From Acidobacteriota bacterium (GTDB lineage Bacteria > Acidobacteriota > Polarisedimenticolia > J045), in NCBI GenBank assembly GCA_046331425.1, contig JAXLQU010000013.1:24458-88457 (forward strand): a stretch of DNA of 64,000 nt, read 5' to 3'. Below are positions 5,477 through 62,357 of this stretch, piece after piece. Within the stretch, counting starts at the first letter, position 1. Each line of letters begins with the position of its first letter. The translations under genes and the position numbers were made by a program. The notes beneath the pieces were generated by a model. It was not told the origin of the DNA and did no database searches. It saw only the letters and a list, made by a program, of their open reading frames with translations.

Positions 5477-6682
5477 ATGACTCAGACGCAGAAGTTTATC
5501 GAGCAAGAAGAACGGTACGGGGCGCACAACTATCACCCGCTGGATGTGGTGCTCACCAAAGGACAAGGGGCGTGGGTGTGGGACGTCGAGGGGCGCAAAT
5601 ACCTCGACTGCCTGGCTGCTTATAGTGCGGTGAATCAAGGCCACAACCATCCGCGGCTGGTCAAGGCGCTCAAAGATCAACTCGACAAGTTGGCGCTTAC
5701 GTCGCGCGCGTTTCGCAACGATCAACTCGGCGCGTTCTGCGAGGAGCTGTCGAAGGTCTGCGGGTTGCCGCGCGTGCTGCCGATGAATAGCGGCGCCGAA
5801 GCGGTGGAGACCGCGATCAAGGCGGTGCGCAAGTGGGGCTACACACTGAAGAAGGTCAAAGACGGCAAGGCCGATGTCATCGTGGCCGATGACAACTTCC
5901 ACGGCCGCACCATCACCATCGTCGGCTTCAGCAGCGAGGCGCAGTATCGCTCGGGGTTCGGGCCGTTCGCGCCCGGCTTCACCAGCGTGCTCTTCGGCGA
6001 TGCCAACGCGGTAGAGCGCGCGATCACACCCAACACGGTCGCCGTGTTGATCGAGCCGGTGCAGGGCGAAGCGGGAATCATCATTCCGCCGGCCGGTTAC
6101 CTGAAACAGTTGCGCGAGATCTGCACACGACATCGCGTGCTGTTGATCCTTGATGAAATTCAGTCGGGGTTGGGTCGCACGGGAAAGATGTTTGCGCACC
6201 ATCACCATGGAATTGCGCCCGACGGACTGATCGTCGGCAAGGCGCTGTCGGGTGGTTTGTATCCGGTCTCGGCCTTCGTGGCCACCGACGAAATCATGGA
6301 TGTGTTCAAGCCCGGCGATCACGGCTCGACCTACGGCGGCAACCCGCTGGCCGCGGCGGTCGCGCGCGAAGCGTTGCGCGTGTTGGTCGACGAGGGCTTG
6401 GTGGAAAACAGCGCCGCGATGGGACAACGCCTGCGCGACGGCATCATGAGCCTGCCTCGCACCAAGCTCGACAAGATCAAGCAGCTTCGGCAGATCGGCT
6501 TGTGGATTGGCCTGGAGTTGAAGCACGAGTTGGGCGGTGCGCGCCCTTACTGCGTGTCGCTGATGCAGCGCGGCATGCTGTGCAAGGACACTCACAAGCA
6601 CACCATTCGCTTGGCCCCGCCATTGGTGGTAACCGCTTCGGAGGTCGATTGGGCGGTCGAGCAGTTGGCCGCTGTGCTGTAG
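5477..6682 (+). CDS. rocD: Ornithine--oxo-acid aminotransferase (class III PLP-dependent aminotransferase)
   Basis: 401 aa. OAT-type sequence throughout: N-terminal EERYGAHNYHPL, DEIQSGLGRTG, PLP-lysine context LIVGKALSGG. Confidence 0.85.
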   Translation: MTQTQKFIEQEERYGAHNYHPLDVVLTKGQGAWVWDVEGRKYLDCLAAYSAVNQGHNHPRLVKALKDQLDKLALTSRAFRNDQLGAFCEELSKVCGLPRVLPMNSGAEAVETAIKAVRKWGYTLKKVKDGKADVIVADDNFHGRTITIVGFSSEAQYRSGFGPFAPGFTSVLFGDANAVERAITPNTVAVLIEPVQGEAGIIIPPAGYLKQLREICTRHRVLLILDEIQSGLGRTGKMFAHHHHGIAPDGLIVGKALSGGLYPVSAFVATDEIMDVFKPGDHGSTYGGNPLAAAVAREALRVLVDEGLVENSAAMGQRLRDGIMSLPRTKLDKIKQLRQIGLWIGLELKHELGGARPYCVSLMQRGMLCKDTHKHTIRLAPPLVVTASEVDWAVEQLAAVL

Positions 6683-6748
6683 CGATTTTCTGCACGCCGG
6701 CCGCAGCGAGGCTTTGGCGCATGCGGCTAGCAACGTAGAATTCGGCGC

Positions 6749-7678
6749 ATGAACACACGTGTCGTGCTTCAGGCTCGATGCAGCTCGTCGCGGCTGCCAG
6801 GCAAGGTGTTGCTGCCTGTCGCAGGGATGCCGTCGGTGGTGTTGTCGGCCAAACGCGCGGCGACGTCGGGGTTGGATGTGTTGATGGCCACCTCCACCGA
6901 TCCTAGCGACGATCACTTGGTGGATGTCGTGAAGAGCGCCGGCTTTCCTGTGATGCGTGGCCCGCTCGACGACGTCTTGCTGCGGTACGTCATGGCCACC
7001 GAAGATCTGGACGACGACGACATTGTGGTGCGATTGACTGCCGACAACGTGGTGCCCGACGGTCCGTATATCGACACGCTGATTGCAGCGTTGCACAAGC
7101 GCGAGGAGCCGTACCTCGGGCCGAGCCATCCTGCCGACGGAATGCCGCATGGTCTGTCGGTGGAAGTATTCACCGCGCGCGCATTGCGTGAGGCTGATCG
7201 ACTGACGCCGCGTCCTGAAGATCGCGAGCACGTCACGCCGTTCTTGCGCCGACGCTACGCCAAAGCGGTGTTTCGCCCCGAGTGGGCGGGCGATTTGTCA
7301 TCGGCGCACTTGGGATGCACGGTCGACACGCGTGCCGACTACGAGCGTGTCGCGCGCTTGATGGAAGGCGTGCGCAACCCACTGACCGCTTCGGCGAAGG
7401 AACTCTGCGTGCGCCTCGCCGTGCAGGAAGAGTTGGTGTTGTGTACCGCGTTCGTTGAATCGCTCAGCGATGCCGCGGCCGAGGCCGCACTGCAATCCGC
7501 GATCGACGAAGGTGTCGTGCAGTTCGTCGTGCACCCCGACCACACGCGCACGCAACAACTGCTCGCGCGCCTGCTCGCCCAGCGCTACGAAGGCCACTCC
7601 TTCATCCGCGTCACCGACGCCACCGACGTCCCCCCCGAAGCGCTAATCCGGGGACGGTTTACCTATTACTTCCGATAG
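6749..7678 (+). CDS. Cytidylyltransferase (CTP_transf_3; SpsF/PseF-like CMP-nonulosonate synthetase candidate). Its C-terminus runs into the MITE TIR.
   Basis: N-terminal VLQARCSSSRLPGKVLLPVAGMP, typical of SpsF/FlmC/PseF-like acylneuraminate cytidylyltransferases. The last ~12 codons (EALIRGRFTYYFR) are encoded by the inverted repeat at 7645-7668. Confidence 0.65.
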   Translation: MNTRVVLQARCSSSRLPGKVLLPVAGMPSVVLSAKRAATSGLDVLMATSTDPSDDHLVDVVKSAGFPVMRGPLDDVLLRYVMATEDLDDDDIVVRLTADNVVPDGPYIDTLIAALHKREEPYLGPSHPADGMPHGLSVEVFTARALREADRLTPRPEDREHVTPFLRRRYAKAVFRPEWAGDLSSAHLGCTVDTRADYERVARLMEGVRNPLTASAKELCVRLAVQEELVLCTAFVESLSDAAAEAALQSAIDEGVVQFVVHPDHTRTQQLLARLLAQRYEGHSFIRVTDATDVPPEALIRGRFTYYFR

Positions 7679-7841
7679 CGCGCGCGCCTGTCACAGCGCG
7701 TAGCTCCATGGCCGGGTGAAGCGTGGTTCGGCCCCGCAGCGAGGCCGGCCGGCGCATCGCCTCGCGCGCCTCCCGCCACCCTCCCTCCCCCGTCCGGCTT
7801 ACCAACGCGCAGCCCTGCTTTAGGTAGACCGTCCCCGAATT
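7645..7841. repeat. MITE-like element, copy 2 (197 bp) with ~24-bp terminal inverted repeats
   Basis: 7645-7668 aatccggggacggtttacctatta. 7818-7841 ctttaggtagaccgtccccgaatt is its reverse complement. Same TIR family as 5218-5345; the internal sequence is only partly related. Confidence 0.7.
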
Positions 7842-7882
7842 GGGCGGATGGCTTTGGACTAGGGCGGAACTTAGGTTGGAGG

Positions 7883-9073
7883 GTGCGGAGGACTGTGAGC
7901 GTGGCGCGGAAGACGCTGGGGTATGGGCGGCAACTCGTTGATGAGGAAGACGTTGCGGCGGTGGTCGAGGTGCTGCGCGGCGACTCGCTGACCTGCGGGC
8001 CGGCGATCGAGGCGTTCGAGCGGGCCCTGGCGGACACCTGCGGAGCCCGGCACGTGGTCGCGGTCAGCAACGGGACCTCGGCGCTACGCCTTATATATCG
8101 TGTCGCCGGGGTGGGGCCCGGCACCCGGGTCGGCGTCCCGGCCATCACCTTCGCCGCCACCGCCACGCAGGCGCTCGCACTCGGCGCCGAGGTGGTGCTG
8201 CTGGACGTCGATCCCACCACGCTGCTCCTCACCCCCGAAATCCTCGACGCCTGCCGCGAGCCTCTCGACTTCGTCGTGCCGGTGCACATGGCGGGACGTC
8301 TGTGCGACATGCAGGCGCTGGCCGACATCGCGCAACGCCGCGGTATCACGTTGCTCGAAGACGCCGCGCACGCACTCGGCTCGACACTCATCGATGGCAC
8401 ACGCTGCGGCGATCTAGCTTTCAGTCGCGGCGCAACGTTCAGCTTTCATCCGGTGAAGAACATCACCACTGCTGAAGGCGGCGCCGTGGCCGTCAACGAC
8501 GATGCGTGGGCCGCGCGGCTGAAGAGCCTGCGCCACCACGGTGTCGCACGCGACTCATTCCACGGCACGCTCGCCGCGCACGATGGCGGCGCCCCTTGGT
8601 ATCACGAGTTTCACGACATCTCCGGCAATGATCGCCTCTCCGACCTGCACGCCGCACTCGGCCTCTCGCAGCTTCGAAAGCTCGCGCGATTCAAAGCCGA
8701 ACGCGCCAACATTCATCAGCGCTATTGCGATGCGTTCTCCGCGCTCGATGGCGTAACGCTGCCGCCCGCCGCTCCGGGTCAACTCCCCTGCTGGCATCTG
8801 TTCCAACTACAACTCGACTGGAAGCAACTACAAATCACGCGCCGCGAGTTCTTCGCGCGCGCCGCCGCCGATGGGCTGCAGCTTCAAGTGCACTACATCC
8901 CGCTGCATCACCAACCGGTGCTGGCCTCATGCGCGCGCGCAAGCTCACTAGCCGGCGCCGACCACGCCTACCAACGATTGGTCACGCTCCCCTGCTTCCC
9001 CGGCTTTACCAGCTCACAACACTCGCACGTCATCGACTTCATCCTCTCGCTGTGCGAAAGGGTCACGGCATGA
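7883..9073 (+). CDS. pseC: UDP-4-amino-4,6-dideoxy-N-acetyl-beta-L-altrosamine transaminase (DegT/DnrJ/EryC1 family)
   Basis: 396 aa. N-terminal LGYGRQLVDEEDVAAVVEVLRGDSLTCGPAIEAFE, typical of PseC/DegT. PLP-lysine context SFHPVKNITTAEGG. An alternative GTG start at 7895 follows GGAGGA. Confidence 0.85.
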   Translation: MRRTVSVARKTLGYGRQLVDEEDVAAVVEVLRGDSLTCGPAIEAFERALADTCGARHVVAVSNGTSALRLIYRVAGVGPGTRVGVPAITFAATATQALALGAEVVLLDVDPTTLLLTPEILDACREPLDFVVPVHMAGRLCDMQALADIAQRRGITLLEDAAHALGSTLIDGTRCGDLAFSRGATFSFHPVKNITTAEGGAVAVNDDAWAARLKSLRHHGVARDSFHGTLAAHDGGAPWYHEFHDISGNDRLSDLHAALGLSQLRKLARFKAERANIHQRYCDAFSALDGVTLPPAAPGQLPCWHLFQLQLDWKQLQITRREFFARAAADGLQLQVHYIPLHHQPVLASCARASSLAGADHAYQRLVTLPCFPGFTSSQHSHVIDFILSLCERVTA

Positions 9074-10137
9074 GCTCCTCCTCGAAGCCACTCGACAACA
9101 AGACCGTGCTGATCACCGGCGGCACCGGTTCGTTCGGCCGCGCCTTCCTCCGCATGGCGCTCACCGAACAATCGCCGCGCAAGCTCATCGTCTTCTCGCG
9201 CGACGAGTGCAAGCAGTGGGAGATGCAGCAGCAAGACCCGCTGTTTCGCGACGAGCGGCTGCGCTACTTTCTGGGCGACGTGCGCGACAGCGACCGCCTG
9301 CTGCGCGCCTTCCGCGACGTCGATTACGTGGTGCACGCCGCCGCACTGAAGCACGTGCCCGCCGCCGAATACAACCCCACCGAGTTCATCAAAACCAACA
9401 TCCACGGCGCGATGAACGTTATCGACGCCGCACTCGATCGCAACGTCGAGAAAGTGATTGCACTCTCCACCGACAAAGCCACCAACCCAATCAATCTCTA
9501 CGGCGCCACCAAGTTGTGCAGCGATAAGCTGTTCGTGCACGGCAACGCCTACAGCGGCGCACATCCGCGCCCCTCGTTCGCCGTGGTGCGCTACGGCAAT
9601 GTGCTCGGCTCGCGCGGCAGCATCGTGCAGCACTGGAAGGCCAAGCTCGACGCCGGAGAACGCGAGCTGCCGCTCACCGACCCACGCATGACACGCTTTT
9701 GGATCACCCTCGACGACGCGGTGCGATTCACGATCAACGCCTTCAGCCAAATGCTCGGCGGCGAGATCTTCGTGCCGCGCATCCCCAGCATGTCGCTCAC
9801 CGATCTCGGCCGCGCGATCGACCCCACCGCCCGTTTCAAAGAGATCGGCATTCGCCCCGGTGAAAAGCTGCACGAGCTTCTGATAGGCGAAGACGACGCG
9901 CGGCGCACGCTGCGCTTCGACAAGCACTACGTGATTGCCCCCGAAGGACTCGGCGAACGATTCGCCACACTCGCCACGCTGCAACAATCCGGCGGCGTTC
10001 GTCTTCCCGACGGCTTCGAGTACAGCTCCGACAAGAACGACGAATGGCTCGACACCGCCGCGTTGCGACGCTTGCTCGAGCACTCCGGCGCACTCGACCA
10101 CACCAACGCGGTGCCGACAGCACGATGCGCGCCCTGA
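9070..10137 (+). CDS. pseB: UDP-N-acetylglucosamine 4,6-dehydratase (inverting), PseB/FlaA1 family
   Basis: 355 aa. TGGTGSFG Rossmann motif, YGATKLCSDKLF catalytic motif, FSRDECKQWEM. ATG 9070 overlaps the pseC stop (ATGA). Confidence 0.88.
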   Translation: MSSSSKPLDNKTVLITGGTGSFGRAFLRMALTEQSPRKLIVFSRDECKQWEMQQQDPLFRDERLRYFLGDVRDSDRLLRAFRDVDYVVHAAALKHVPAAEYNPTEFIKTNIHGAMNVIDAALDRNVEKVIALSTDKATNPINLYGATKLCSDKLFVHGNAYSGAHPRPSFAVVRYGNVLGSRGSIVQHWKAKLDAGERELPLTDPRMTRFWITLDDAVRFTINAFSQMLGGEIFVPRIPSMSLTDLGRAIDPTARFKEIGIRPGEKLHELLIGEDDARRTLRFDKHYVIAPEGLGERFATLATLQQSGGVRLPDGFEYSSDKNDEWLDTAALRRLLEHSGALDHTNAVPTARCAP

Positions 10138-11086
10138 TTCGATGCGATGCCGGCCGCGAACTCGACTCGGCCACGCGATGCGCTGCCGCACCCTGGCGTC
10201 GTCGCTCAAAGCCTCCGGTTGGCAGGTCGACTGGGCCTGCCGCGCCTCAGCCGAACTGCTGCAAGTGCTCGGCCGCCACCCCGATCTGTCGCTCCCCGGC
10301 GAGCCATCGTTCGCGCCGCTCCCCAGCAGCGAAGCCGAGGCACTCGGCAACTTCGCGCGCGGCGCCGAGTGGGTTGTCGTCGATCACTACGGTGCCGATA
10401 CCGCGTGGCTCACGCGCCTGCGCGAGGCAGGCCGCGGCGCGCAGATCTTGCTGCTGGACGATCATCAAACGCGCGACGGCGCCGACCTACGACTCGCGCC
10501 AATGCAGCCACACTCACCGCACACTCTGTCGGGCCTCGAGTACCTGATGCTGCGCGCGCCGTTCTGCGGCATGCGCAATCACCCCGCGCAGCCTCGGAGC
10601 GGCTTCGTGATTTGCATCGGCGGCACTGACCCGCAGCACCTCACTCGCGCCGCGGTAGAACAACTGATCACGCTTGGCGGGCAACTCCCCGAACTCACCG
10701 TGCTCAGCGGCGACACGCTCCTGGATAGTCTGCTCACGCGCTGGCCCGTTCCCGCGCGGCGCCACACGTGGCTCGATGCCGATCCTCTTGCACGCCTGCT
10801 TGCACAGACACAAGCAGCGCTGGTCGCCACATCGGGAGTTGCCTTCGAGGCGTTGGCAATGGGCACGCCAATCGTCGGCTTGCAGTGGGCGGACAATCAA
10901 ACGCAACACGCGCAGCGTTTGTTGGAAGCCGGTATTCCTGTCACGCCAAACGTGCAGATGTCGGCCACACTCCTGCATCGTGGTTGTGCGGTGGCGGCGC
11001 GCCTCTCCGATGGCGGCGGCGTCAAACGCGTGGTGCAAGCGATGACGGCACACGTCGAGGTGACCAAGACATGGGCCTCGCGCTAA
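10125..11086 (+). CDS. pseG: UDP-2,4-diacetamido-2,4,6-trideoxy-beta-L-altropyranose hydrolase PseG (GT28-like) with a 1-nt frameshift near 10173-10177
   Basis: N-terminal MRALIRCDAGRELDS is in frame 0 (ATG 10125, overlapping the pseB end). GHAMRCRTLASSLKASGWQVDW and the rest (...GIGGTDPQH...ALAMGTPIVG) are in the frame of ORF 9935..11086. One extra G in the GG run near 10175 would join them. Confidence 0.7.
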
Positions 11087-11733
11087 CGATCCTCAGCGAT
11101 GCGGGCCACTGGCTCGAGCCGGCGTTGGAAACGCTGGCCGACGAGTGGCGCGCGCAAGGGCACACCGTGCGACGCGTGCATACCGCCGCTGCACTCCCGC
11201 ACGGCGATCTGTGCTTCATGCTCGGCTGCGGGCAAATCGTGTCGCCCGAGCTGCTCGCGCATCACACACACAACTTGGTGACACACGAAAGCGCGCTGCC
11301 GCATGGGCGCGGATGGTCGCCGTTGACGTGGCAGGTCTTGGAAGGCCAACGGCAGATCCCCGTCGTGCTGTTTGAAGCGGCGCCACGCGTGGACGAAGGG
11401 CCGATCTATCTGCGCACCACCATCGCGCTCAACGGCAACGAGCTCGTCGATGAACTTCGCGCCGCACAAACCCAAGCCACCTTCTCGCTGTGCCGCGAGT
11501 TCGTCGCCAAGTACCCTGAGGTCCTGAGCCACGCCCAAGCGCAGAACGGCGTCCCCTCGCGCTACCCACGACGAATCCCGGCAACCAGCGAGCTTTTCCT
11601 CGACCAAACACTGGAAGAAGCGTTCGACCTGCTACGCGTCTGCGACCCAGAGCGATACCCCGCCTTCTTCGATCGCGACGGCCAGCGCTACTACCTGACG
11701 CTCAGCAAGGAGCCTCCATGCCGCAGCCGCTGA
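11071..11733 (+). CDS. Sugar N-formyltransferase-like protein (Formyl_trans_N domain only), sitting where pseH normally lies
   Basis: 220 aa. HESALPHGRGWSPLTWQVLEG matches the formyltransferase HxSLLPxxRG core (FMT/PurN/ArnA-N/WbtJ-like). Its start overlaps the pseG end by 16 nt. Confidence 0.65.
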   Translation: MGLALTILSDAGHWLEPALETLADEWRAQGHTVRRVHTAAALPHGDLCFMLGCGQIVSPELLAHHTHNLVTHESALPHGRGWSPLTWQVLEGQRQIPVVLFEAAPRVDEGPIYLRTTIALNGNELVDELRAAQTQATFSLCREFVAKYPEVLSHAQAQNGVPSRYPRRIPATSELFLDQTLEEAFDLLRVCDPERYPAFFDRDGQRYYLTLSKEPPCRSR

Positions 11734-12887
11734 TGATCGAGTCGCGGCCAATCGGTGCCGGGCATCCTGCGTTGATCGTTGCGGAGTTGTCGGCCAATCA
11801 CGGCGGCAGTCTCGATCGCGCGCTCGAGTTGGTTCGATTGGCGCACGACGCCGGCGCCGACGCAATCAAATTGCAAACCTATCGCCCCGACACCATGACA
11901 ATCGATTGCACTGCGCCGTGGTTTCGCGTGCAGGGCGGCTTGTGGCACGGCCGCACACTGTGGGACTTGTACACCGAAGCGCACACGCCGTGGGAATGGC
12001 ACGAGCCGTTGTTCGCCGAAGCGCGACGCTGCGGCCTGCTCGCCTTCAGCACACCGTTCGATGCCACGTCGGTCGACTTCTTGGAGCGCTTCAACTTGCC
12101 CTGCTACAAGATCGCCAGCTTCGAAGTCGGTGATTTACCGCTGCTCGAGCGTGTCGCTGAAACGAAGCGGCCCGTAATAGTCAGCACCGGCATGGCGTCG
12201 CTCGATGAAATCGAGCAAGCGGTCGCGACATTGCGAAACGGTGGCTGCCCCAACGTGATTCTGCTGAGCTGCGTCTCTGCCTACCCTGCCGAACCGCGTG
12301 ACTTCAAGCTGCGCAACCTGCCAATGCTCGCCGATCGGTTTGATGTTCACGCAGGACTCTCCGATCACAGCAGCGGATCGCTGGTCGCCGTGACCGCCAC
12401 CGCGCTCGGCGCCCGCGTGATCGAGAAGCACTTCTGTCGCCGGCGCAGCGACGGTGGCCCCGATGCCGCATTCAGCGCCGAACCCGAGGAGTTTGCCGAT
12501 CTCGTGCGTGCCGTGCGCAACACTGAATCGATGCTTCAGCCGAGCAGACTCGGTCCGTCATTGGCGGAAGAAGGAAGCTTGGTGTTTCGCCGCTCGCTGT
12601 TTGCGGTGCGCGACATTGCGCCGGGCGAGTTGTTCACCAGCGAGAACGTGCGCGTGATCCGCCCCGGATTTGGCCTGCCTCCGGGCGATCTGCCGCGCGT
12701 CCTGGGAAGAACCGCCGCGACCGCGCTCCAACGCGGAACCCCGCTCGCTTGGGAGCATGTGTCGGGCCGCGATCGCCGCGACGACGCTCACGGTGTCGTT
12801 GCGGGCACTACCAACGCTGCCAGTGCGAGCGCCGGCACAAGCGGCGACCTCGCCATCAACTCCCGCGGTTGGTCATCACGTCGATGA
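11718..12887 (+). CDS. pseI: Pseudaminic acid synthase (NeuB family) with an unusual low-complexity C-terminal tail
   Basis: 389 aa. ALIVAELSANHGGSLDRALELVRLAHDAGADAIKLQTY and the SAF-like C-terminal region are as in NeuB/PseI. About 45 extra residues at the C-terminus (…DRRDDAHGVVAGTTNAASASAGTSGDLAINSRGWSSRR). Confidence 0.88.
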   Translation: MPQPLMIESRPIGAGHPALIVAELSANHGGSLDRALELVRLAHDAGADAIKLQTYRPDTMTIDCTAPWFRVQGGLWHGRTLWDLYTEAHTPWEWHEPLFAEARRCGLLAFSTPFDATSVDFLERFNLPCYKIASFEVGDLPLLERVAETKRPVIVSTGMASLDEIEQAVATLRNGGCPNVILLSCVSAYPAEPRDFKLRNLPMLADRFDVHAGLSDHSSGSLVAVTATALGARVIEKHFCRRRSDGGPDAAFSAEPEEFADLVRAVRNTESMLQPSRLGPSLAEEGSLVFRRSLFAVRDIAPGELFTSENVRVIRPGFGLPPGDLPRVLGRTAATALQRGTPLAWEHVSGRDRRDDAHGVVAGTTNAASASAGTSGDLAINSRGWSSRR

Positions 12888-13564
12888 GCGACGTTCTCAT
12901 CTTCGGCGCGCAGCGCGACATCATGCTGCCTGCGTTTCATGCGCTCACCGCTAACATACCCTGCGTGTTGGTGCGCCGCCCCGAAGATCTCTCCATTGCG
13001 TTGCTCGAGCGCGTCAAACCGCGCCTGGTGGTGCTCCCCGACTGGAGTTGGATCGTCCCCGACGATCTACTCGCGCGCGCAACCTTCATCGGCTTCCACG
13101 CTTCCGCCCTGCCCGACTACCGCGGCGGCTCGCCGTTGCAACATCAAATCTTGGACGGCCTCAACGAAACCAAGCTGACGATGTTTCGCATGGCCGCCGG
13201 TCTCGACAACGGACCGATCCTGCTCGATGCACCGCTCTCGCTGGCTGGCACCATCAGCGAGATCTGGCAGCGCATCGCCGCGTTGGTGCCACCAATGGTG
13301 ACCCGCTTGCTTCACGGCGATGTCGAGGAGAAACCCCAACCAATCGGCGGCTTCGTGCGCAAGCGCCGCACCCCCGATCAAAGCGAACTGACCGACCCCG
13401 CGCTGTCGCTCTCGCGTTGGTACGACATGCTTCGTGCGCTCGACGACCCCTACCCCAACGCGTTCGTGCGCGTTGGCGGCAAGCGAATCGCGTTCCGCAA
13501 GCCGCGCCTCAGCGGCGACGCGCTGATCGCCGAAGCAGTCATTCGCGAGGAGCCGTCGAAATGA
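12884..13564 (+). CDS. Second formyltransferase-domain protein (Formyl_trans_N-like)
   Basis: 226 aa. HASALPDYRGGSPLQHQILDG is again the formyltransferase core. It is a paralogue of 11071..11733. ATG 12884 overlaps the pseI stop (ATGA). Confidence 0.6.
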   Translation: MSDVLIFGAQRDIMLPAFHALTANIPCVLVRRPEDLSIALLERVKPRLVVLPDWSWIVPDDLLARATFIGFHASALPDYRGGSPLQHQILDGLNETKLTMFRMAAGLDNGPILLDAPLSLAGTISEIWQRIAALVPPMVTRLLHGDVEEKPQPIGGFVRKRRTPDQSELTDPALSLSRWYDMLRALDDPYPNAFVRVGGKRIAFRKPRLSGDALIAEAVIREEPSK

Positions 13565-14298
13565 TCCACTCGCACGGACCGGTGCTGGTGATTGCCGCGC
13601 ATCCCGACGACGAAGTGCTCGGCTGCGGCGGCACCATCGCGCGCCTCGCTGCCGAGGGGCGCGATGTACAGATTGCGATTTTGGTGGAGGGGCTCACCTC
13701 TCGCGATGATCAACGCGACGCCGCCAAGCACGCAGCCGCACTGGCCGAGCTGCGCGCCACCGCGCAGCGTGTCGCCACATCGCTCGGCGCGCGAGCACTT
13801 CACACCTTCGGCCTCCCCGACAACCGGCTCGACACCGTACCGATGCTCGATGTCGTCAAGATCTGCGAATCACTGATCGAGACGATTCAACCCAGCGTGA
13901 TCTTCACGCACCACGCCGGCGATTTGAACGTCGATCACCGCGTCATTTCGCAAGCGGTGCTCACCGCAACACGGCCGATTGCCTCGCGCCCTGTACTGCA
14001 GGTGATCGCCTTCGAAGTGGCCAGCAGCACCGAGTGGTCGTTCCAACAGATAGCGCCACCATTCAGCCCCAACCTGTTCGTCGACATCGCCGCCACGCTC
14101 CCGCAGAAGATCGCCGCGATGAAGGCGTACGACGGCGAGTACCGCCCGTTCCCTCACCCGCGATCTGCCGAAGCGCTCGAAGCGCAAGCCAAGCGCTGGG
14201 GATCGACCGCGGGCCTGATGGCGGCTGAGGCGTTTCAGATTGTGCGCTCGATTGTTCGATGTGAAGTGCTGGCGTCTGCTGCGAGCAACCAGAGTTGA
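13561..14298 (+). CDS. PIG-L/LmbE family N-acetyl-sugar deacetylase
   Basis: 245 aa. VLVIAAHPDDEVLGCGGTIA and HHAGDLNVDHR are the PIG-L zinc-site motifs. ATG 13561 overlaps the previous stop (ATGA). Confidence 0.8.
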   Translation: MIHSHGPVLVIAAHPDDEVLGCGGTIARLAAEGRDVQIAILVEGLTSRDDQRDAAKHAAALAELRATAQRVATSLGARALHTFGLPDNRLDTVPMLDVVKICESLIETIQPSVIFTHHAGDLNVDHRVISQAVLTATRPIASRPVLQVIAFEVASSTEWSFQQIAPPFSPNLFVDIAATLPQKIAAMKAYDGEYRPFPHPRSAEALEAQAKRWGSTAGLMAAEAFQIVRSIVRCEVLASAASNQS

Positions 14299-22460: not shown

Positions 22461-22563
22461 CGGGGTCGGCTTGCATCGCTTCCCGAAGTCAGCTTTTCTA
22501 GACGGCAAATAAGTCGTCTTTTAGTTCGAAGGCGGTCACTTTCGTAACGGGAAGGCCTATCAC

Positions 22564-44208: not shown

Positions 44209-44306
44209 AAAGTGATCTTAGCCGATCAATCCTGACGGTAGGTGTCAGTTGTCGTGTCGTATCTTCGGCAGTCTTGAATACCCAGCCCCCCAGGAGGAGT
44301 GTGCCG

Positions 44307-44927: not shown

Positions 44928-45964
44928 CGAGAGCGGAGCGGATGGCCGCGATGGAGCGTGCGCCGCGAACTCGAGGGTTGGTGGCAACGACCTGACCTGG
45001 CACTGCGGGCCCGTGGGCTGTTGACTGCGAGTGTGTTCACGGTGAAGCTGCCGCGTCGTTGCAGTCGCGTTGTGAAGCAGTCGGCAATCACTCGAACGAT
45101 GGTGTCGTCGTGGTGGAGCCTTGGTTTGAACCCGGTGTATTGGACCCGACGCGCATCCACACGATGACGATCGAGGCGCGACCTTCGAGTGGTTCGAGTT
45201 GGCCGCGCGGAGGCGGACGGTCGATCGCCTCGGCTATTGTTCGACGACGAGATTCAAGCGCGTGGCGCGATTCGTCATGCGCGCGAGGTGCATGAGCTTG
45301 GGTTGCTCACGACGGCGGAGATGCTGGAGTGCTTCGAGTCCGCAGGACTGGCTGCAACGCACGAGGCTCCGGGGTTGTCGGGGCGCGGGCTTTTCATCGC
45401 GAGAGCGACTTCCGTGTGACTTCCTTGCGGCCACGACGGATGGCTTTCGGCGCGAAGATGTCGCTAACGACATCCACCGAGCGCTCTCGTTACAGTTGGA
45501 GGGCTCCCCATCAGACCTCGATTTCATTCGAAAAGAAGAGCGCCAGCTTTCGGTGGCCGAATCGACTCCGGTCTCCAGCACTCGAGCGAGGGTGCGCGAT
45601 CAACCATCGTGTGATGCTCGCCACACTCTGATCCGGTCGAAGTCGATTGCGCAACTGATGATCGTTGCGGGAATCGCCTCGAGATCTCTCAGTCGATACT
45701 TGTCTCGTAGTAGCACGTTGATCGTTGGCTCGTCCATGCCAAGGGCACTGATCAAGCAGGCAGAGAATGCATCAAAGTGCTTGGGACCGAAGATACCGTC
45801 AGGCACGTCGACCCGTAGGGTCAGAGACGAACCCGGCCACGTGTCATCGACCTGAGTGCCCAGAACTTCTTTAGCGCTGCGGGGTTCCCACTGACCTTCC
45901 GGCATGACTCCTCCCAACTCGCCGGAATACTACGAGATTCCGGGGGCCGCGTGGAGCATGCCAT

Positions 45965-47566
45965 TCACAGCAGGATCATGTCGCAAAGCTCGTCGAGCCC
46001 CGCGAACATACCCGGCCCCAAGTCATGCAACCGCTCGATGCGCGTCCCGACCGGCTCCCACGTTTGCACCTCGATCGGCTCGAACGGCAGCGACTTACGA
46101 AAGTACATCGTGTACGCGTAGCGTCGTACCAGATCGCGATCGGGGTGGAATAGCTCCGTGCCGTCGGCCAAGCGCGCGAGCGTGTCGAAGTACTCGATGC
46201 GCGACGATGGCGACAGCACGATTCCGGGTTTGCCGTAATGCACCTGAGCGCCCGTGGTCATGACTGTCTTGCCTTGCAGCGCCATCTCCAACCCGACCGT
46301 CGATGTGTTGACCAGTCCAATGTCGATCAGCCGGTAGAGCACGAAGGGGCTGATCGGATCATCGGGTGCAATCAGCCGAACGTTGGCGGGCAGCGACTCG
46401 TACCGCTTGGCGAGCATCGTGGCGATGCGCCAGTCCTGCGGCGTCTGCTCGACGAAACGGCTTTCTGCGGGATGTGCCTTGACCAGTAGCAATACATCGT
46501 GGTGCTCCGCCGCCCACGCCACCAACGATTCGAGCCATTCGAACATGTCCTCGAACGCGCCTTGTGTTTCGGGCTCGGCAGCGTCGAACGCCACGTTGGC
46601 GAATGCGCCGAGGATGCGACGCCAGCGCGTGCTGGCTAGGTCGTGCCGTTGCATGAACGCCGCTTGATCTTGATTGATCTGTTCGAAGTACTGCGTAAAG
46701 TCGGCGCGGTTGTCCTCGCGCGTGGCGAGATACTCGTCGAGCTGCCGCTCCTCGTCGGCACTCAGCGGAACGTCGCTCCATGCAGGCCAGATGTCGTCGC
46801 AGTGCAGGCGACGCTCCATGTTCTTTTGGCAGATCAGAGTATTGGCGCGCCAGCCGCCGCCGTAGATCACGCTGGGGATGTTCATCGCCCGCGCCAGCGC
46901 GCTCCAGGGTCCCCACGTCGCGTACACGCCGTGCGAGCTGAACACCGTGTCGGGGCGCAGCGTTTCGAACATGCGCCGCGCTCCTTCGGTCATCAGCAGG
47001 GCGGTGGCCAGGTTGCGCCGCATCATCGACGCCATTTGCGGGTCTTCAAGATTGAGCCGCCCGGCGCGAAAGTAACGCAACGTCGAGCCAAACACGAAGC
47101 GGCCCAGCGCGATGCCGGCGTGGTGGACATCGAGAATTCGATCCAATGGAGTTTGCTGCGCAAGTCGCTTCAGCGCGGCGGAGGTGGGTGCATCGAGCCA
47201 CTCGCTGGTTTTGAGCACCGGCAGGCCGAGCCCTTGCAGTTGCTCATCACCGTGATGCACGCAGCTTTGACACATCGACACGCTATCGTGATCGAAGGTG
47301 CGGGCATCACACGCCTCGTACCCGTCGCAGAGCACGAGCGCCACATCGGCACCGCGTTGGCGCAGGGCGTGTGCAATGAACCCTTCGCGCACAGCGAACA
47401 GCTCGCTCGCGCCGACAAGCATCGGGATCAGCACGCGTGGCCGTTGACCAATCGAAAGCGCTGACGGACGCTCCGGCATGCCGGCCGCCATCAGGCGCGC
47501 GAACTCGTTGCGCCAGGCGGCCGCGCCTCGAACCTCGCGCATCGTGGTCAGCGTTTGGGTCATCAT
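45965..47566 (-). CDS. Capsule-polysaccharide-biosynthesis-like protein (KpsS/KpsC-type domain, tentative), coupled to the upstream four-domain gene
   Basis: 533 aa from ATG 47566, which overlaps the upstream stop 47565-47563 (ATGA). The track ORF is extended to 48157 through a spurious N-terminus. Family assignment is by weak resemblance only. Confidence 0.45.
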   Translation of the reverse strand: MMTQTLTTMREVRGAAAWRNEFARLMAAGMPERPSALSIGQRPRVLIPMLVGASELFAVREGFIAHALRQRGADVALVLCDGYEACDARTFDHDSVSMCQSCVHHGDEQLQGLGLPVLKTSEWLDAPTSAALKRLAQQTPLDRILDVHHAGIALGRFVFGSTLRYFRAGRLNLEDPQMASMMRRNLATALLMTEGARRMFETLRPDTVFSSHGVYATWGPWSALARAMNIPSVIYGGGWRANTLICQKNMERRLHCDDIWPAWSDVPLSADEERQLDEYLATREDNRADFTQYFEQINQDQAAFMQRHDLASTRWRRILGAFANVAFDAAEPETQGAFEDMFEWLESLVAWAAEHHDVLLLVKAHPAESRFVEQTPQDWRIATMLAKRYESLPANVRLIAPDDPISPFVLYRLIDIGLVNTSTVGLEMALQGKTVMTTGAQVHYGKPGIVLSPSSRIEYFDTLARLADGTELFHPDRDLVRRYAYTMYFRKSLPFEPIEVQTWEPVGTRIERLHDLGPGMFAGLDELCDMILL

Positions 47567-50500
47567 GGCGTCACCTCGCGGCGCACACAGGCAGTGATCG
47601 AGACCGGATAGGCCTCGTCCTGGCAGTTCATTTCGTCTGGTTTCAGATCTTCCGCGGCGGCGCCGATCAGAAAGCCGATCGCAGCCACGAGGTTCCCGCG
47701 GGCACGCACATCGGCACGAGCGCCGGGACACAGATCGTTGACCAGCCGCGTGATCGAGTCGACCGTGAATCGCCAGTGATCCTCCGGTTCGCGGCTCACC
47801 TTGATGATCGACGGCACCGTCAGCAGCAGCGTTCCACCCGGCTTGAGCGACTGGTACACCTCGGCAACAGCGGTCACGACGTCGTGAATGTGCGGCAGCG
47901 TTTGCGTCAGGATGAAGGTGTCGTAGGCGCGACGCGGAAGCGAGCCTGGTTTGTTGAGATCGGCGATGCGTGTGGCGCGCGGGTTGGTGGTTGACACGTC
48001 GATCACCTCGACGCGCGACACACGGTTTCCACCGAAACGGCGCGCGTACTCGTCGCCACCGATCTCGGCAACCTCGCCGCGAATCTCGCCGCTGTGTTGT
48101 TCGAGGAACTGCTCGATGTAGACGCGATCGATGGGTGTACCGCGATCGAAGCCCCACTTGCTGCTAACCGGGTGCATCGAGCGCAACTGGCCCCAGTCGA
48201 TAGGGCTGCGGGTGGATGGAGCAGAGAGCGGTGCGGGTATCGGCGCCAGCGTTAACGGCTGTGCTGGCTTGGCGAGATGCACCTTTGGCGTTTGGAGCGC
48301 GGCGCCTGGCGCGGTTGATTTCGCGGGCGATCGATGCGGCACGGCATCGAGAAACCGTGCCCGCGACGCCCCAACCTCGGCGGCGATCTGCGTTGCTCTG
48401 TGAAGTAGACGCGCGCTCAGTGCCTCGCGGCTTTCCATCATTTGCAGCAAGCAGCGTTCGAACTCGAGCGGCGTGGTCGTGTCGATCGGCACCGGAAGGC
48501 CGCGCATGTCAAACAGCGCGGCAAGGCCAAGCATCTTCTGCTGATAGTGCGCCCCGCGATACAACCCGAGATATGGAACGCCCGAGGAGAGCGCAAACAC
48601 CGCGCTGTGATAGCTGATACCAAACGCCAACTGCGCTCCCGCCATCAATGCCTTGGCCTCGGCGGGCGTCAGCTCGTTGCGCAGCACCACGAACTCTCCG
48701 CGATACGCAACGCGGGACGACAACAGCTCGAGATGCTCGCGCTCATCGGTCCCCGCGAAATGCATCGGTACGCCAATCACCGGCAGACCGGTGCCTGCAA
48801 TCGCCGCATCGATGCACGAGGCAAAGTAAGCAGGCGCGTGATCGTCGGCGTGGTCGAGATAGTGGCGATACTGAAACGCAATGTACGGCTGATCGGCGGC
48901 TACGCCTGCCTCCTGCAGGATCGACTGCACACGAGCGCGCGGCGCCGGCTCGAGGCTGATCGCGTCGTCGCCAACGGTTGACAGCGCGGCGCTCACACCC
49001 AACTCGCGCAGGTACGCCTCGCTGTGCGCCTCGCGAACCGTTATCTCGGTTACGCGTGACAGTGCAGTGCGCAGCAGTACCTCATCGGGAGCGGCGATGC
49101 AGCGATCGATCCCCTGCCCGGTCACGAACAGCGGCTTGGCTGAGATCAGGTAGTCGAGGCACTTCTCGTAGAAGTACGACTGCCAGTGCGACGAGAGGTT
49201 CGCGCCGCCGCAGTCGATCACCCCATCGGCAGTAAGCAGCGCGATCACGCCTTGGCGATATGGCTCAGGCAGCCACGCTGGAAACTGCCCGCTGATGATC
49301 TGCTCGCGATCCAGCACAAACTGACGCGCGGCAAGCAGTACGCGCTTGGCCGGCACCTCGTCTGGAAACACCTGCGCCAGTTCACGCGCCACGAACCTTT
49401 GCAGTGAACGCTCGATCGGAACATCGATTTGAGCAGCGACCGAACCGCACGCCTCGGGATTCTCGGCAAGCACCGTGATCGCGGCCGAGGGGTCACGCCG
49501 GCGCAAATCACAAACCGTGGCGATGAGCATCGCGTCATCACCCAGGTTCTGGGCGCTGATCCCGCTCAACACCACGATCCTTCGCCCGGTGCGCGGTGCT
49601 TCCGCGGGCGCAAGCACCTGTTGTATTCGGCGCTCCAGCTCGAGCGCGTCGAACGGCTGCACGATCAGGCGCGGCAACCGCATCGCGCTCCGCTGCCCTA
49701 GCTCGCTGCGACGTTGCGGTTCGATCGCGCCGCTGGATGTGGTGAACGCTGCGGTGACGCCGTAACTCACGAGCAGCTCGATGGCTGTTTCGGAGATATC
49801 GCCCGGCCCGCCGTGCGGAAACGCGAACAGGCGCGGCCGACGCCCCAGCTCTCGCTCCAAGTCGTTCAGCGACCCTTCGATCTCTTGTTGCGCATGCAGA
49901 CGATCGAGTGCACCCAACGACGAGTGGAACTGCGTGTGCGCCCCCATCTCGACGAGTCCATCGGCGGCAATCTCTCGCAGCATCGCCCAATTGCAGCTCA
50001 GATCCGATAGCCGACGCCGTGTCTGCGCGAGGAACTCCTCGAGCAAGGCATCGAGCGCCGCGTTGCGCTGTTCGGGCGGGAGTTTTTTGTACGGCTCCTG
50101 CAGTCCGGAACGCCCCGCCGCCACCAGCACTTCCCACCAAAACGGCGTCTTCGGTCCAACGTGCCCAGTCGGTACGAACAGCACGGCCGGAACGCGGTGC
50201 TTGCGTAGGATCGGCCAGGCGTGCAGGTAGAAATCGCGATACGCATCATCGAAGGTCAAGAGCACGCGCGGCCGCGGGTCCGACGTGGGCGCCCCGTGCA
50301 AGAACTCCTCCGCCGACACAACGCGATACTGTTGACACAAGTGCCGCAAATGCGACTCGAACAGAGCCGGCGTGATCGCCAGTTGATAAGGGTCCTCGCC
50401 GACACTCGGGTGCACACGATGGTAGTTCAAGACAACCGTGCTCGGTTCGGGCGTAGCGTTCGGCGCTGCTTCGCGTTGCGGTCGCTGCTCGATCCACGTC

Positions 50501-51444
50501 AGTTGCTCGTTCTGTTTGGTTGCGAGCGCGGCACCACCATGCTGGTCGGTCAGCTCGTGGTAGCGGCGGTAGATCACGCGATGCGCATGCAGAAAGTCTT
50601 TGTTCGACTCGGCGCTCATGCGGCGTGGATTTGTGGCATCCACACCGCTGGTAACGACGCGACTGTCGGTTACCTGCACCGCCGCGCGCAGGCGAATCCA
50701 AAAGTCCCAGTCTTCGTTGGCGCGCAGCATCGCGTCGAAGCCGCCAATCGCATCGATCAACGCCCGCTCGTGCAACACCGCCTGTACCGGAGTGACGTTC
50801 TCCTCCAGCAACTCGCTCAGCTCGAAGGCGCGCCATGGCAGCGGCTTGAAGAAGTCTGGGCCAACGCCCTGCTCGGCGGGGCGGCGAATCAGTGCGACGG
50901 CGCGCGCGGCGCGCGCGTTGGTTGAGACAAGCAAGTGCACCAGGTGACCGACATGGTGCGGATAGAGCCGATCGTCGTCATCGAGATAGCCGATGTACTC
51001 ACCACGCGCCGCCTTCGCGCCGCTGTTGCGCGCCGCGGCCAAGTACTTGTTGCGCTCATGCTCGATCAATTGAATCGGCAGCCGATCACGGAACTCGGCG
51101 ATTACCTGATTGACCGCGCACCCTGCATCGTTCACGACCACCGCTTCGATCGGGCGATAGAGCTGCGAGGCGACGCTCTCCAACGCGCGGCGCAGCAACT
51201 CGGGCCGATTGAAGGTGGGGATGACGATCGAAACCAGCGGCCCCGAATCGAGGTGCGCTCCGCCTGCACTCCACGCGAGTGCCAAGCGGCGTGCATCGCG
51301 CCACAGTTCCGATTCGGCCGCAGCCGCGATTGCAGCCACCTGCGCGTCGCCCTCTTCGACCGAACCGGCGAGCGCTTCCCACAGCACGATATCGCGCCGT
51401 CCTGCTTCTAGTTGATTGATCACGGTGTTCACATGGCAAGTCAT
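47563..51444 (-). CDS. Four-domain polysaccharide-modifying protein: GT2 glycosyltransferase, polysaccharide deacetylase (NodB), polysaccharide pyruvyl transferase, class I SAM methyltransferase
   Basis: 1293 aa. VSIVIPTFNRPELLRRALESV…YLDDDD (GT2). RVLLTFDDAYRDFY…AVLFVPTG (NodB). RIVVLSGISAQNLGDDAMLIATVCDL (PS_pyruv_trans). VAEIGGDEYARRFG…LKPGGTLLLTVP (methyltransferase). Confidence 0.8.
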   Translation of the reverse strand: MTCHVNTVINQLEAGRRDIVLWEALAGSVEEGDAQVAAIAAAAESELWRDARRLALAWSAGGAHLDSGPLVSIVIPTFNRPELLRRALESVASQLYRPIEAVVVNDAGCAVNQVIAEFRDRLPIQLIEHERNKYLAAARNSGAKAARGEYIGYLDDDDRLYPHHVGHLVHLLVSTNARAARAVALIRRPAEQGVGPDFFKPLPWRAFELSELLEENVTPVQAVLHERALIDAIGGFDAMLRANEDWDFWIRLRAAVQVTDSRVVTSGVDATNPRRMSAESNKDFLHAHRVIYRRYHELTDQHGGAALATKQNEQLTWIEQRPQREAAPNATPEPSTVVLNYHRVHPSVGEDPYQLAITPALFESHLRHLCQQYRVVSAEEFLHGAPTSDPRPRVLLTFDDAYRDFYLHAWPILRKHRVPAVLFVPTGHVGPKTPFWWEVLVAAGRSGLQEPYKKLPPEQRNAALDALLEEFLAQTRRRLSDLSCNWAMLREIAADGLVEMGAHTQFHSSLGALDRLHAQQEIEGSLNDLERELGRRPRLFAFPHGGPGDISETAIELLVSYGVTAAFTTSSGAIEPQRRSELGQRSAMRLPRLIVQPFDALELERRIQQVLAPAEAPRTGRRIVVLSGISAQNLGDDAMLIATVCDLRRRDPSAAITVLAENPEACGSVAAQIDVPIERSLQRFVARELAQVFPDEVPAKRVLLAARQFVLDREQIISGQFPAWLPEPYRQGVIALLTADGVIDCGGANLSSHWQSYFYEKCLDYLISAKPLFVTGQGIDRCIAAPDEVLLRTALSRVTEITVREAHSEAYLRELGVSAALSTVGDDAISLEPAPRARVQSILQEAGVAADQPYIAFQYRHYLDHADDHAPAYFASCIDAAIAGTGLPVIGVPMHFAGTDEREHLELLSSRVAYRGEFVVLRNELTPAEAKALMAGAQLAFGISYHSAVFALSSGVPYLGLYRGAHYQQKMLGLAALFDMRGLPVPIDTTTPLEFERCLLQMMESREALSARLLHRATQIAAEVGASRARFLDAVPHRSPAKSTAPGAALQTPKVHLAKPAQPLTLAPIPAPLSAPSTRSPIDWGQLRSMHPVSSKWGFDRGTPIDRVYIEQFLEQHSGEIRGEVAEIGGDEYARRFGGNRVSRVEVIDVSTTNPRATRIADLNKPGSLPRRAYDTFILTQTLPHIHDVVTAVAEVYQSLKPGGTLLLTVPSIIKVSREPEDHWRFTVDSITRLVNDLCPGARADVRARGNLVAAIGFLIGAAAEDLKPDEMNCQDEAYPVSITACVRREVTP

Positions 51445-51989: not shown

Positions 51990-53237
51990 ATGATTTCTGC
52001 CCAAACGCTCCGCGCCAACGCCTCTCTGCTGAAACTCGATCTGTACTGCAAGGGACTGCGGATGGCCGACTCGTGTTTCATCGAGGAAGACGGCGGGCGC
52101 AAGATCCTCCGCACGCGCGCCGGGCTGGGCAGTGGCCTGGAATTGATTCTCCCGGGAAACATGTGGACCAATGTCCCAGTCTCCGAAGCGTTCGCGGCAG
52201 AAAGTCCCTATGTCCTCGAGAAAATCGGTGGCCGTTACAACCTGACATGGAGCGGAGAGTCGATCGTCGACGTCACGCTTTCGCCGCGACCCGAATGGTA
52301 CGACGCACACACCACCAGCGGGAAGGTGATGACCAAGGTTGGAACGCTGCAAGGAACGTATCTCGGCGTCTATCCCGCCAAGGTCTGCGAGTATTGGCTC
52401 AAGAAACCCGAGCGCGACAACTGCAAGTTCTGCTCGGTTGGTTTGAACTTGGGCGTGGACGATGCCGACGAGAAGTCGGTCAATGAAGTCATGGAGGTGG
52501 TGCGAGCGGCGCGCCGTGAATCGGGAATTACATACGTCGATTTCAACACCGGCCACTACGAGGGTGATACGTACCTCGACATTCTCGAGCCGTACATTCG
52601 ACGGATCAAAGCCGAGGTCGGGTTGTTGGTTGGTGTGCAAACGCCGCCGCATCGGGATCTGAAGCGCTACGACAAGCTACGTGAGATAGGTGTCAATCGC
52701 GTCTCGTTCTGCTTTGAAATCTTCGACCGGGAGAAGTTCATCGAGGTTTGCCCGGGCAAGCACACCGAGTACGGCCTGGACTACTACCTCGAAGCAATTC
52801 GCTACTGTGCGACGCTCGGCTCCAAGGGTCCGAAGAGCGAACCGTGGGTCACCAACGGCGAGATCATTGCTGGACTCGAGCCGGCCGAATCGTCGATTGC
52901 CGCAATCGATTGGATTACGTCGGTCGGCGCGATTCCCACCGTGTGCGTCTTCCGCCCGCTGAAAGGGACCGATCTGGAAGACACGCCGCCGCCCAAGACC
53001 GAAGAAATGGTGCCGGTGTTTCGACGCCTGTATGAAGCCTGCATGGAGCGCGGCCTACCGATCGGCTGCGCCCCCAATGTGCATGTGAGCCTGGTGATGC
53101 TCCCCGAAGAATGCCGCGGCCTCAGCGACAAGAGCTTCTACTGGCAGCGTCTGAAGCTGGCTGCCATGGCGAAGATCTTCGGCATGCAGTTCGAGCGCAA
53201 GCTGGCTGCGATCGAAACCAAGAGCTCGGCTGCGTAG
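51990..53237 (+). CDS. Radical-SAM-like TIM-barrel protein with a non-canonical Cys motif (CX12CX2C), tentative
   Basis: VCEYWLKKPERDNCKFCSVG. Downstream ITYVDFNTGHY, GVNRVSFCFEIFD and NGEIIAGLEPAE resemble the radical-SAM core strands. Family is uncertain. Confidence 0.4.
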   Translation: MISAQTLRANASLLKLDLYCKGLRMADSCFIEEDGGRKILRTRAGLGSGLELILPGNMWTNVPVSEAFAAESPYVLEKIGGRYNLTWSGESIVDVTLSPRPEWYDAHTTSGKVMTKVGTLQGTYLGVYPAKVCEYWLKKPERDNCKFCSVGLNLGVDDADEKSVNEVMEVVRAARRESGITYVDFNTGHYEGDTYLDILEPYIRRIKAEVGLLVGVQTPPHRDLKRYDKLREIGVNRVSFCFEIFDREKFIEVCPGKHTEYGLDYYLEAIRYCATLGSKGPKSEPWVTNGEIIAGLEPAESSIAAIDWITSVGAIPTVCVFRPLKGTDLEDTPPPKTEEMVPVFRRLYEACMERGLPIGCAPNVHVSLVMLPEECRGLSDKSFYWQRLKLAAMAKIFGMQFERKLAAIETKSSAA

Positions 53238-62256: not shown

Positions 62257-62357
62257 GGCGGGACAGGTGTCGGCGAGTAATGGCGCCGCTTGACTGCAGA
62301 TTGTCTCGGCGGTGCCTGTCCCGGTTTCTTACGAAGTAGACCAGGAGCAACACCATC

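Follow-up and report, generated by a model that had tools for sequence, protein, structure and literature searches.

In the synthesis of rhizobial Nod factors, sugar transfer by the glycosyltransferase family 2 (GT2) enzyme NodC is combined with de-N-acetylation by NodB, a cytoplasmic carbohydrate esterase of family 4 (CE4), and with methylation of the freed amine by NodS, which depends on S-adenosylmethionine (SAM). In other systems, groups are set at the chain end, as by WbdD (methyl or methyl-phosphate), WbbB (β-linked Kdo, 3-deoxy-D-manno-octulosonate) and WbbZ (terminal pyruvate) (PMC10629545). The pyruvyl transferase CsaB binds phosphoenolpyruvate (PEP) through residues R148, H308 and K328 (PMC10435577), and KpsC possesses an invariant QXXXD motif (Q156xxxD160), in which Asp160 is the nucleophile, plus a His-Pro (HP) motif (PMC10148158). 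Transferases for nonulosonic acids (NulO) are represented by KpsS1 (GT118) and Gtr59 of Acinetobacter baumannii, two PF05159 members encoded beside NulO modules (PMC4487303, PMC12887879), and by Tanf_01245/BFO_1060 of Tannerella forsythia, which carries an HP motif (PMC5420450). Here we analyze a stretch of 64,000 nucleotides from a soil-type Acidobacteriota bacterium (contig JAXLQU010000013.1, positions 24,458 to 88,457; subsequently designated the window), in which a single open reading frame (ORF) joins GT2, CE4, ketal pyruvyl transferase (PvT) and methyltransferase (MT) modules and overlaps the gene of a 533-aa partner protein. The fusion and its partner are a rare new arrangement of familiar enzyme families rather than a system of a new kind. 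Acidobacteriota, a phylum abundant in soils, have surface glycans that are, to our knowledge, almost unstudied.

The two genes and the modules of the larger one are arranged as follows:

47563..51444, minus strand: four-domain ORF, 1293 aa, ATG start (coordinates include the stop codon)
50545..51249, minus strand: GT2 (GT-A) glycosyltransferase module, residues ~66-300 (Pfam and motifs)
49609..50439, minus strand: NodB/CE4 deacetylase module, residues ~336-612 (Pfam and motifs)
48340..49593, minus strand: ketal pyruvyl transferase module (PvT; CsaB/WcaK-like), residues ~618-1035
48211..48339, minus strand: Pro/Ala-rich linker between PvT and MT, residues 1036-1078
47566..48210, minus strand: class I SAM-dependent methyltransferase module (MT), residues 1079-1293
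47563..47566, minus strand: ATGA stop/start overlap of both genes
45965..47566, minus strand: 533-aa partner ORF, start inside ATGA

The initial annotation, made from the letters of the sequence, had read the 1293-aa ORF as one frame with four catalytic modules, and this reading was borne out: all four modules passed domain searches with Pfam, the catalytic and ligand motifs that can be checked are invariant among relatives, and the boundaries proposed there were roughly right, the revised ones being those given above. Neither a split of the frame by frameshifts nor a failure of two or more modules in domain searches, the two outcomes envisaged at that time as speaking against it, was encountered. 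The GC content by codon position is even across the ORF (about 0.70/0.46/0.75) and agrees with that of other genes in the window, which argues for one genuine frame. The protein is identical to NCBI protein P0001, encoded on a 126-kb contig of an Acidobacteriota metagenome-assembled genome (MAG), and the gene is intact in NCBI, JGI, ENA and Logan assemblies, which are independent of each other. An origin of the ORF by frameshift or chimerism was considered and ruled out by the even codon-position GC together with the intact full-length homologues in these assemblies. No transmembrane segments are predicted in the protein. In an alignment of seven relatives of 47-75% identity the linkers differ in length, and one of the relatives, P0006, carries an insert of ~190 aa between GT2 and CE4.

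The GT2 module matches Glycos_transf_2 (PF00535) over residues 72-177 with 84.3 bits (cut-off 23.3). Its DXD-type motif DDDD155-158 and the stretch N243-E-D-W246, which contains the 'ED' catalytic-base motif E244-D245, are invariant in the seven relatives. The best solved relative is 9jma, a PglI-type β-1,3-glucosyltransferase acting on an undecaprenyl-pyrophosphate (Und-PP)-linked glycan (E=1.2e-20), with which both DDDD and EDWDF are aligned. For the CE4 module, Polysacc_deac_1 (PF01522) was detected at residues 390-565 with 64.4 bits (cut-off 23.1). Here, the motifs T397-F-D399-D400 (TFDD) and H503-T-x-x-H507 are invariant in the seven relatives and are separated from each other by an insert of ~100 aa. 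IcaB (4wcj, E=6e-14) and PgaB are the best solved relatives of this module, and TFDD as well as the His pair are aligned with them. The motif F-A-F-P543-H544-G is likewise present and invariant, and no confident assignment could be made for the RxPY, DxxDW and LxH motifs.

The pyruvyl transferase module matches PS_pyruv_trans (PF04230) over residues 633-962 with 85.6 bits (cut-off 25.3), a match that spans positions 1-277 of the 280 in the model. Residues R804, H946 and K970 are invariant in the seven relatives and follow each other at distances of 142 and 24 residues, as compared to 160 and 20 for the PEP-binding residues of CsaB, a comparison of spacing between unaligned sequences. The module scored 76 bits against the CsaB model TIGR03609, below the equivalog cut-off of 213. 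Indeed, all NCBIfam matches of the protein (MftF, PglI and WcaA-type GT2 for the first module, PgaB and IcaB for the second, CsaB and WcaK for the third) stay under their equivalog cut-offs and therefore indicate agreement at the family level only.

For the methyltransferase module the Pfam score is marginal (Methyltransf_11, residues 1159-1207, 23.8 bits, cut-off 21.2), and no NCBIfam model matches its subfamily. A search with the last 219 aa retrieved 914 homologues at E<1e-10, mainly stand-alone proteins of 220-270 aa named 'SAM-dependent methyltransferase', with 42-52% identity. An AlphaFold2 (AF2) model built on 40 proteins of this subfamily reached a mean predicted local distance difference test score (pLDDT) of 94.8, and the best 50 matches of the model in a Foldseek search against the PDB were all class I SAM methyltransferases, with probability 1.0; the family profile also detected PDB methyltransferases at an E-value of about 1e-6. 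Homologues and model thus gave independent confirmation of the marginal Pfam match, i.e. of a class I SAM methyltransferase with Rossmann-like fold. The region of motif I reads EIGGDEY in the window protein, ELLNDDY in relatives and EVxxxxY in the subfamily consensus, the acidic residue E1127 being invariant. E1127, D1149, D1162 and D1175 are all invariant in the seven relatives, and the latter three are conserved at places where contacts with the ribose and adenine of SAM would be expected, after strands 2 and 3. The subfamily also shares an invariant N-terminal segment, WGFDRG.P.DR.YIE.FL.

The deviating and variable motif I and the marginal Pfam score raise the question whether one or more modules are catalytically inactive and serve as scaffold or in acceptor binding, the MT being the likeliest candidate. 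We regard this as most improbable: more than 900 stand-alone proteins of the subfamily have the same atypical motif and are hardly all inactive, the acidic residues that would be expected to contact SAM do not vary, and in the other three modules the catalytic motifs that can be checked are retained.

Fusions of this composition are rare. At least seven proteins in a collection of 5.8 billion sequences align end to end with the window protein and have the same four modules (46-100% identity). A second search, carried out by HMMER with residues 330-1293, i.e. leaving out GT2, against 1.84 billion representatives at 50% identity, yielded only about six in which CE4 is fused to PvT, whether or not MT is present as well (P0005, P0007, P0178-P0181), among them the 1423-aa four-domain protein of locus L011. 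Altogether, ~10 cluster representatives (at 90% or 50% identity) combine CE4 and PvT among billions of proteins. Following the earlier suggestion to trace the phylogenetic distribution of the fusion, we found full-length relatives in only three Acidobacteriota MAGs in a set of 185,579 species represented by one genome each, i.e. within this set the fusion is confined to few MAGs of this phylum. A literature search for this four-domain combination retrieved nothing.

However, the claim that the fusion is unusual holds for the added pyruvyl transferase and for the domain order and does not hold for the combination of GT2, MT and CE4, which is common. Proteins of ~815 aa arranged as GT2–MT–CE4 (e.g. 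P0256 and P0232, the latter a 'polysaccharide deacetylase family protein' from Vicinamibacterales) account for dozens of the 50%-identity representatives among the best 150 matches, and in a Bacteroidetes MAG the three functions are encoded by adjacent separate genes (L090, 9989-14523). The ~815-aa proteins are related to the window protein in MT (42% identity), in CE4 (30%, including the same long insert) and in GT2 (27%), but lack a pyruvyl transferase, and their order differs from GT2–CE4–PvT–MT in the window. Since all three domains are homologous, the window protein is a reordered member of that lineage, which gained a pyruvyl transferase.

Next to this fusion, the partner gene deserves attention. 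The overlap of the four-domain stop codon with the start of the partner, noticed already in the initial annotation, is real and conserved: in seven of the eight loci in which the sequence continues, the exception being L007, the four-domain gene is immediately followed by a partner homologue, and the two are joined there by an ATGA, GTGA or TGATG overlap or separated by a 2-nt gap. An evolutionary link between both genes is also indicated by two proteins of 756-760 aa, P0126 and P0127 (L013, 10001-12283), in which a degenerate N-terminal CE4 fragment is fused to a domain of the partner family. In this fragment TFDD is replaced by TFDGG and the region of the His pair finds no match; the context in L013 is without glycan genes and adjoins MbnB/HvfC-like and anti-sigma genes. 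At least 57 proteins belong to the partner family. None of them has a name other than 'hypothetical', weak matches to PF05159 (Capsule_synth) are frequent among them, and the 533-aa protein itself scores marginally for this model (23.1 bits, cut-off 20). Alignment of 41 members revealed conserved sites:

47261..47329, minus strand: Cys4 cluster C80, C86, C99, C102, invariant or nearly so in the 41 members
46583..46597, minus strand: motif N324-x-x-x-D328, the Asp being invariant
46463..46474, minus strand: H365-P366-A-E368, containing the 'HP' motif of cytidine monophosphate (CMP)-sugar transferases, HP being invariant

Common to the 41 sequences are F322-x-N324-x-x-x-D328, H365-P366-x-E368 and G425-x-E427, and the four cysteines are a probable zinc site. 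An AF2 model of the partner (pLDDT 92.9) consists of two Rossmann-like halves, and its Foldseek matches, with E-values of about 1e-8 and low TM-scores, were GT-B enzymes of two sorts, GT1 transferases and UDP-GlcNAc 2-epimerases. The family profile detected the sequences of KpsC crystal structures with E=3.3e-7 over a segment containing HP and TS..G.E..L.GKPV, whereby HP is aligned to VKVHPD of KpsC; the corresponding value for WbbB was 0.15. In the partner D328 precedes HP by 37 residues, in KpsC the distance from nucleophile to HP is 35 residues, and in both proteins the Asp is found six residues past a β-strand (residues 317-322 in the partner). The active site of the partner may resemble that of KpsC; D328 would then be the nucleophile, and H365-P366 would be placed at the phosphate of CMP. 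The KpsS/KpsC-like character assigned to the partner at the outset is therefore supported at the profile level, but the protein is better called a probable nonulosonic-acid transferase than a capsule protein. The grounds for this lie in its genomic surroundings:

5477..14298, plus strand: complete-looking synthesis cluster for a pseudaminic/legionaminic acid (Pse/Leg)-type NulO
21268-22476, minus strand: IS110-family transposase, between NulO cluster and pair

The cluster comprises genes for an Aminotran_3 protein, a CMP-sugar synthetase (CTP_transf_3), a DegT aminotransferase, a PseB-like dehydratase, a PseG-like protein, a formyltransferase, a NeuB synthase, a second formyltransferase and a PIG-L deacetylase; the two formyltransferases together with PIG-L suggest that an N-formylated NulO is made. 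Its GC content (0.64-0.66 in 5477-14298) is higher than that of the rest of the window. In locus L003, whose four-domain gene is 53% identical, an orthologous NulO cluster abuts the partner gene, and the IS110 transposase may accordingly mark a rearrangement that parted cluster and pair in the window. In four independent contexts (L003, L010, L015 and L096) a NeuB-containing cluster and a partner-family gene are no more than 10 kb apart. In the last three loci, which belong to three unrelated lineages, partner homologues of 27-31% identity adjoin complete Pse/Leg-type clusters with PseB-like dehydratase, DegT aminotransferase, CMP-sugar synthetase, PseG- or NeuC-like enzymes and NeuB. In addition, the partner weakly matches the family model of the T. 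forsythia NulO transferases (BFO_1060_trans, 16 bits). Genomic context thus favours NulO over Kdo as the donor sugar. Taken together, family profile, motifs and gene neighborhoods suggest a CMP-nonulosonic-acid glycosyltransferase as the most probable identity of the partner, which has a GT-B fold and is a distant member of the KpsC/KpsS superfamily; its donor is likely supplied by the NulO cluster of the window.

From these assignments a working model can be drawn, which we consider rather probable as a whole: the pair would form a bicistronic module at the cytoplasmic face of the membrane, which builds and decorates one position of a lipid-linked glycan, likely a terminus or branch. The GT2 module, soluble and non-processive, would add one sugar, probably an N-acetyl-hexosamine, to an Und-PP-linked oligosaccharide in the manner of PglI. 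The CE4 module, cytoplasmic like NodB and with a metal held by Asp-His-His, would remove the N-acetyl group of this sugar, and the MT would methylate the product, either at the freed amine according to the NodC/NodB/NodS logic or possibly at a hydroxyl. The PvT module would add a pyruvate ketal from PEP, and the co-translated partner a NulO from the CMP-activated donor made by the cluster at 5.5-14.3 kb. Acceptor, sugars, reaction order, carrier and final glycoconjugate are what we infer from the enzyme families involved.

Several observations weigh against this model. Neither single-sequence nor profile searches with the PvT module against PDB sequences found any pyruvyl transferase, so that the residues of CsaB and Pvg1p were not mapped onto it, and the MT lacks the glycine-rich motif I (E/DxGxGxG). 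The partner has Asn324 where the KpsC family has an invariant Gln (NxxxD versus QxxxD); as QxxxD is not strictly matched, the partner was not filed as GT107. Moreover, its similarity to KpsC is confined to the nucleotide-binding half, and none is detectable in the acceptor-binding half. The NulO cluster lies 32 kb away from the pair rather than next to it, and no NulO genes were found within 10 kb of pair or partner in L005, L011, L013 and L097. Finally, the scan of window ORFs revealed neither a flippase or polymerase nor an initiating transferase or an ABC (ATP-binding cassette) exporter for glycans.

The tight coupling of the four-domain gene to a probable NulO transferase gene could also mean that CE4, MT and PvT act on the NulO or its precursor, for instance by de-N-acetylation followed by N-methylation. 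NulO sugars are known in diverse N-acyl and N-methyl variants, and NulO clusters already hold PIG-L deacetylases, formyltransferases and extra methyltransferases, which may be counted in favour of such tailoring. However, many proteins and loci contain the GT2–MT–CE4 trio without any sign of NulO genes, the nearest relatives of the CE4 module, PgaB and IcaB, work on polymers of GlcNAc, and the PvT module resembles CsaB, which acts on ManNAc. These findings leave tailoring of the NulO itself a quite unlikely explanation.

As a special case of the favoured model, in which the pair builds and decorates one glycan position, the pair might set a chain-terminating cap, which stops polymerization and licenses export of a glycan by an ABC transporter. 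It unites three known or proposed terminator chemistries, i.e. methyl, pyruvate ketal and ulosonic acid (PMC10629545, PMC12887879), its GT2 module is non-processive and soluble, and it is often found apart from a full glycan locus. Yet a Wzm/Wzt-type ABC-2 transporter with carbohydrate-binding module is missing among the window ORFs scanned, in which the only ABC system is of another type:

60278-63572: MacAB-type ABC system

No coiled-coil ruler was found among these ORFs either, and distant partner homologues reside in loci with Wzx flippases (L010, L015, L096), indicating Wzy-dependent or branch-adding roles. We therefore judge this narrower version of the model unlikely.

Upstream of the four-domain gene, the initial annotation had listed a radical-SAM-like gene and two secreted metzincins as flanking genes. 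They are indeed present:

51990..53237, plus strand: variant radical-SAM gene, C133-x11-C145-x2-C148 (NF045502 'variant_rSAM', 200 bits), divergent from the four-domain gene
53256-54797 and 54925-56499, minus strand: two tandem secreted Mep72-like metzincins with reprolysin and C-terminal fn3 domains, paralogues of each other

Their conservation is limited to closer relatives, though. One or two metzincin copies are kept beside the radical-SAM gene in relatives, and these genes stay with the pair as far as relatives of 53% identity, but they were not found at L005 and L011, the most distant loci, and hence do not belong to the conserved core. At L005 the pair sits in a glycan cluster of deoxy-sugar/heptose type. 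The radical-SAM proteins of window and L003 are 80% identical, while the adjacent four-domain proteins share only 53% identity. The fusion of several GT2 relatives with radical-SAM domains had suggested a functional link of the radical-SAM gene to the pair, but this idea was dropped, as the radical-SAM protein of the window has no specific similarity to those domains.

The flanking proteases open up another explanation, namely that the pair finishes an O-linked oligosaccharide on secreted proteins such as the metzincins or a group of putative lipoproteins, similar to the general O-glycosylation of Tannerella forsythia with its terminal Pse/Leg. The window encodes one such protein:

17466-18272, plus strand: 268-aa putative lipoprotein, signal peptide ending LFPVSC, no family match

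In L003, four tandem paralogues of this protein (10072-13374) are encoded between NulO cluster and partner gene; they are possible glycosylation targets. The reprolysin-fn3 proteases are conserved beside the pair in relatives of 53-74% identity, and the weak match of the partner to the T. forsythia NulO-transferase family (PMC5420450) fits this explanation as well, as does a gene for a PEP-CTERM (exosortase-sorted) protein, which directly follows the pair in L011 (11754-12449). On the other hand, proteases and radical-SAM gene are missing in L005 and L011, so that the synteny may reflect relatedness only, and no oligosaccharyltransferase was seen nearby. Glycosylation of secreted proteins is therefore, in our view, distinctly improbable as the function of the pair.

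Further features around the pair are the following:

51866-51893, plus strand: GC-rich hairpin followed by T8, terminator-like, within the intergenic region 51445-51989 and ~100 nt upstream of the radical-SAM start
44274-44927, plus strand: 217-aa ORF with twin-arginine-type signal (RRRFLQSAAGLAIG), no family match

Relatives at 97% and 74% identity retain the hairpin together with its flanks, and their indels of 1 and 2 nt make it unlikely that an overlapping 45-aa ORF is coding. An RNA element in the intergenic region 51445-51989 was considered and discarded, as Rfam gave no match and the predicted fold is no better than that of shuffled sequences (z=-1.08). Downstream of the partner, ~1 kb (44930-45964) is without a convincing ORF; an ORF of 218 aa on the plus strand (45199..45855) was rejected as a gene, as it is Arg-rich, shows atypical codon-position GC and has no family match.

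What makes the pair attractive is that it provides a compact, clonable set of five predicted glycan-modifying activities, in which substrate channelling is directly testable. It also gives a testable role to two large families without assigned function, i.e. the recurring MT subfamily and the 'hypothetical' Cys4 KpsC-like family. The latter is likeliest to repay experiments. NulO transferases are scarce and sought for glyco-engineering, and a new family would be useful if true. The understanding of such systems remains unchanged, their parts and logic being familiar.

Regarding described systems comparable to the partner, KpsS1, Gtr59 and BFO_1060 are alike in that NulO modules are found next door, as for the partner homologues in L003, L010, L015 and L096; for KpsS1 and Gtr59 the likeness is one of Pfam family, weak scores and context rather than of sequence alignment. 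A Cys4 cluster as in the partner is not described for KpsS1, Gtr59 and BFO_1060 (PMC4487303, PMC5420450, PMC12887879). KpsC/KpsS (GT107) and WbbB (GT99) differ as well, as the partner has this extra cluster and consists of a single 533-aa module. It is possible, though doubtful, that the partner founds a new glycosyltransferase family of double-displacement Pse/Leg-type transferases with Zn(Cys4) and NxxxD/HP motifs, outside GT107, GT118, GT99 and GT140, and that, jointly with it, the four-domain enzyme makes an undescribed terminus combining an amino sugar in de-N-acetylated and methylated form with a NulO and a ketal of pyruvate, which may serve as chain-end or export signal in Acidobacteriota.

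Regarding the four-domain enzyme, WbdD, WbbB, WbbY and WbbZ resemble the pair in that several glycan-building or -capping activities are united per polypeptide or gene pair. However, they have other domain families and another architecture and are tied to ABC transporters, and no such exporter turned up in the window ORFs scanned. CsaB and WcaK correspond to the PvT module, which matches PF04230 over its whole length, but in the window this module is fused to three other enzymes. The logic of NodC/NodB/NodS matches that of GT2/CE4/MT, with NodB, NodC and NodS appearing as weak matches at the family level only. Yet each of these enzymes is a protein of its own, NodC being a processive synthase of the membrane, and no pyruvylation is involved, whereas the window enzyme carries its modules, including the pyruvyl transferase, on one fused polypeptide.

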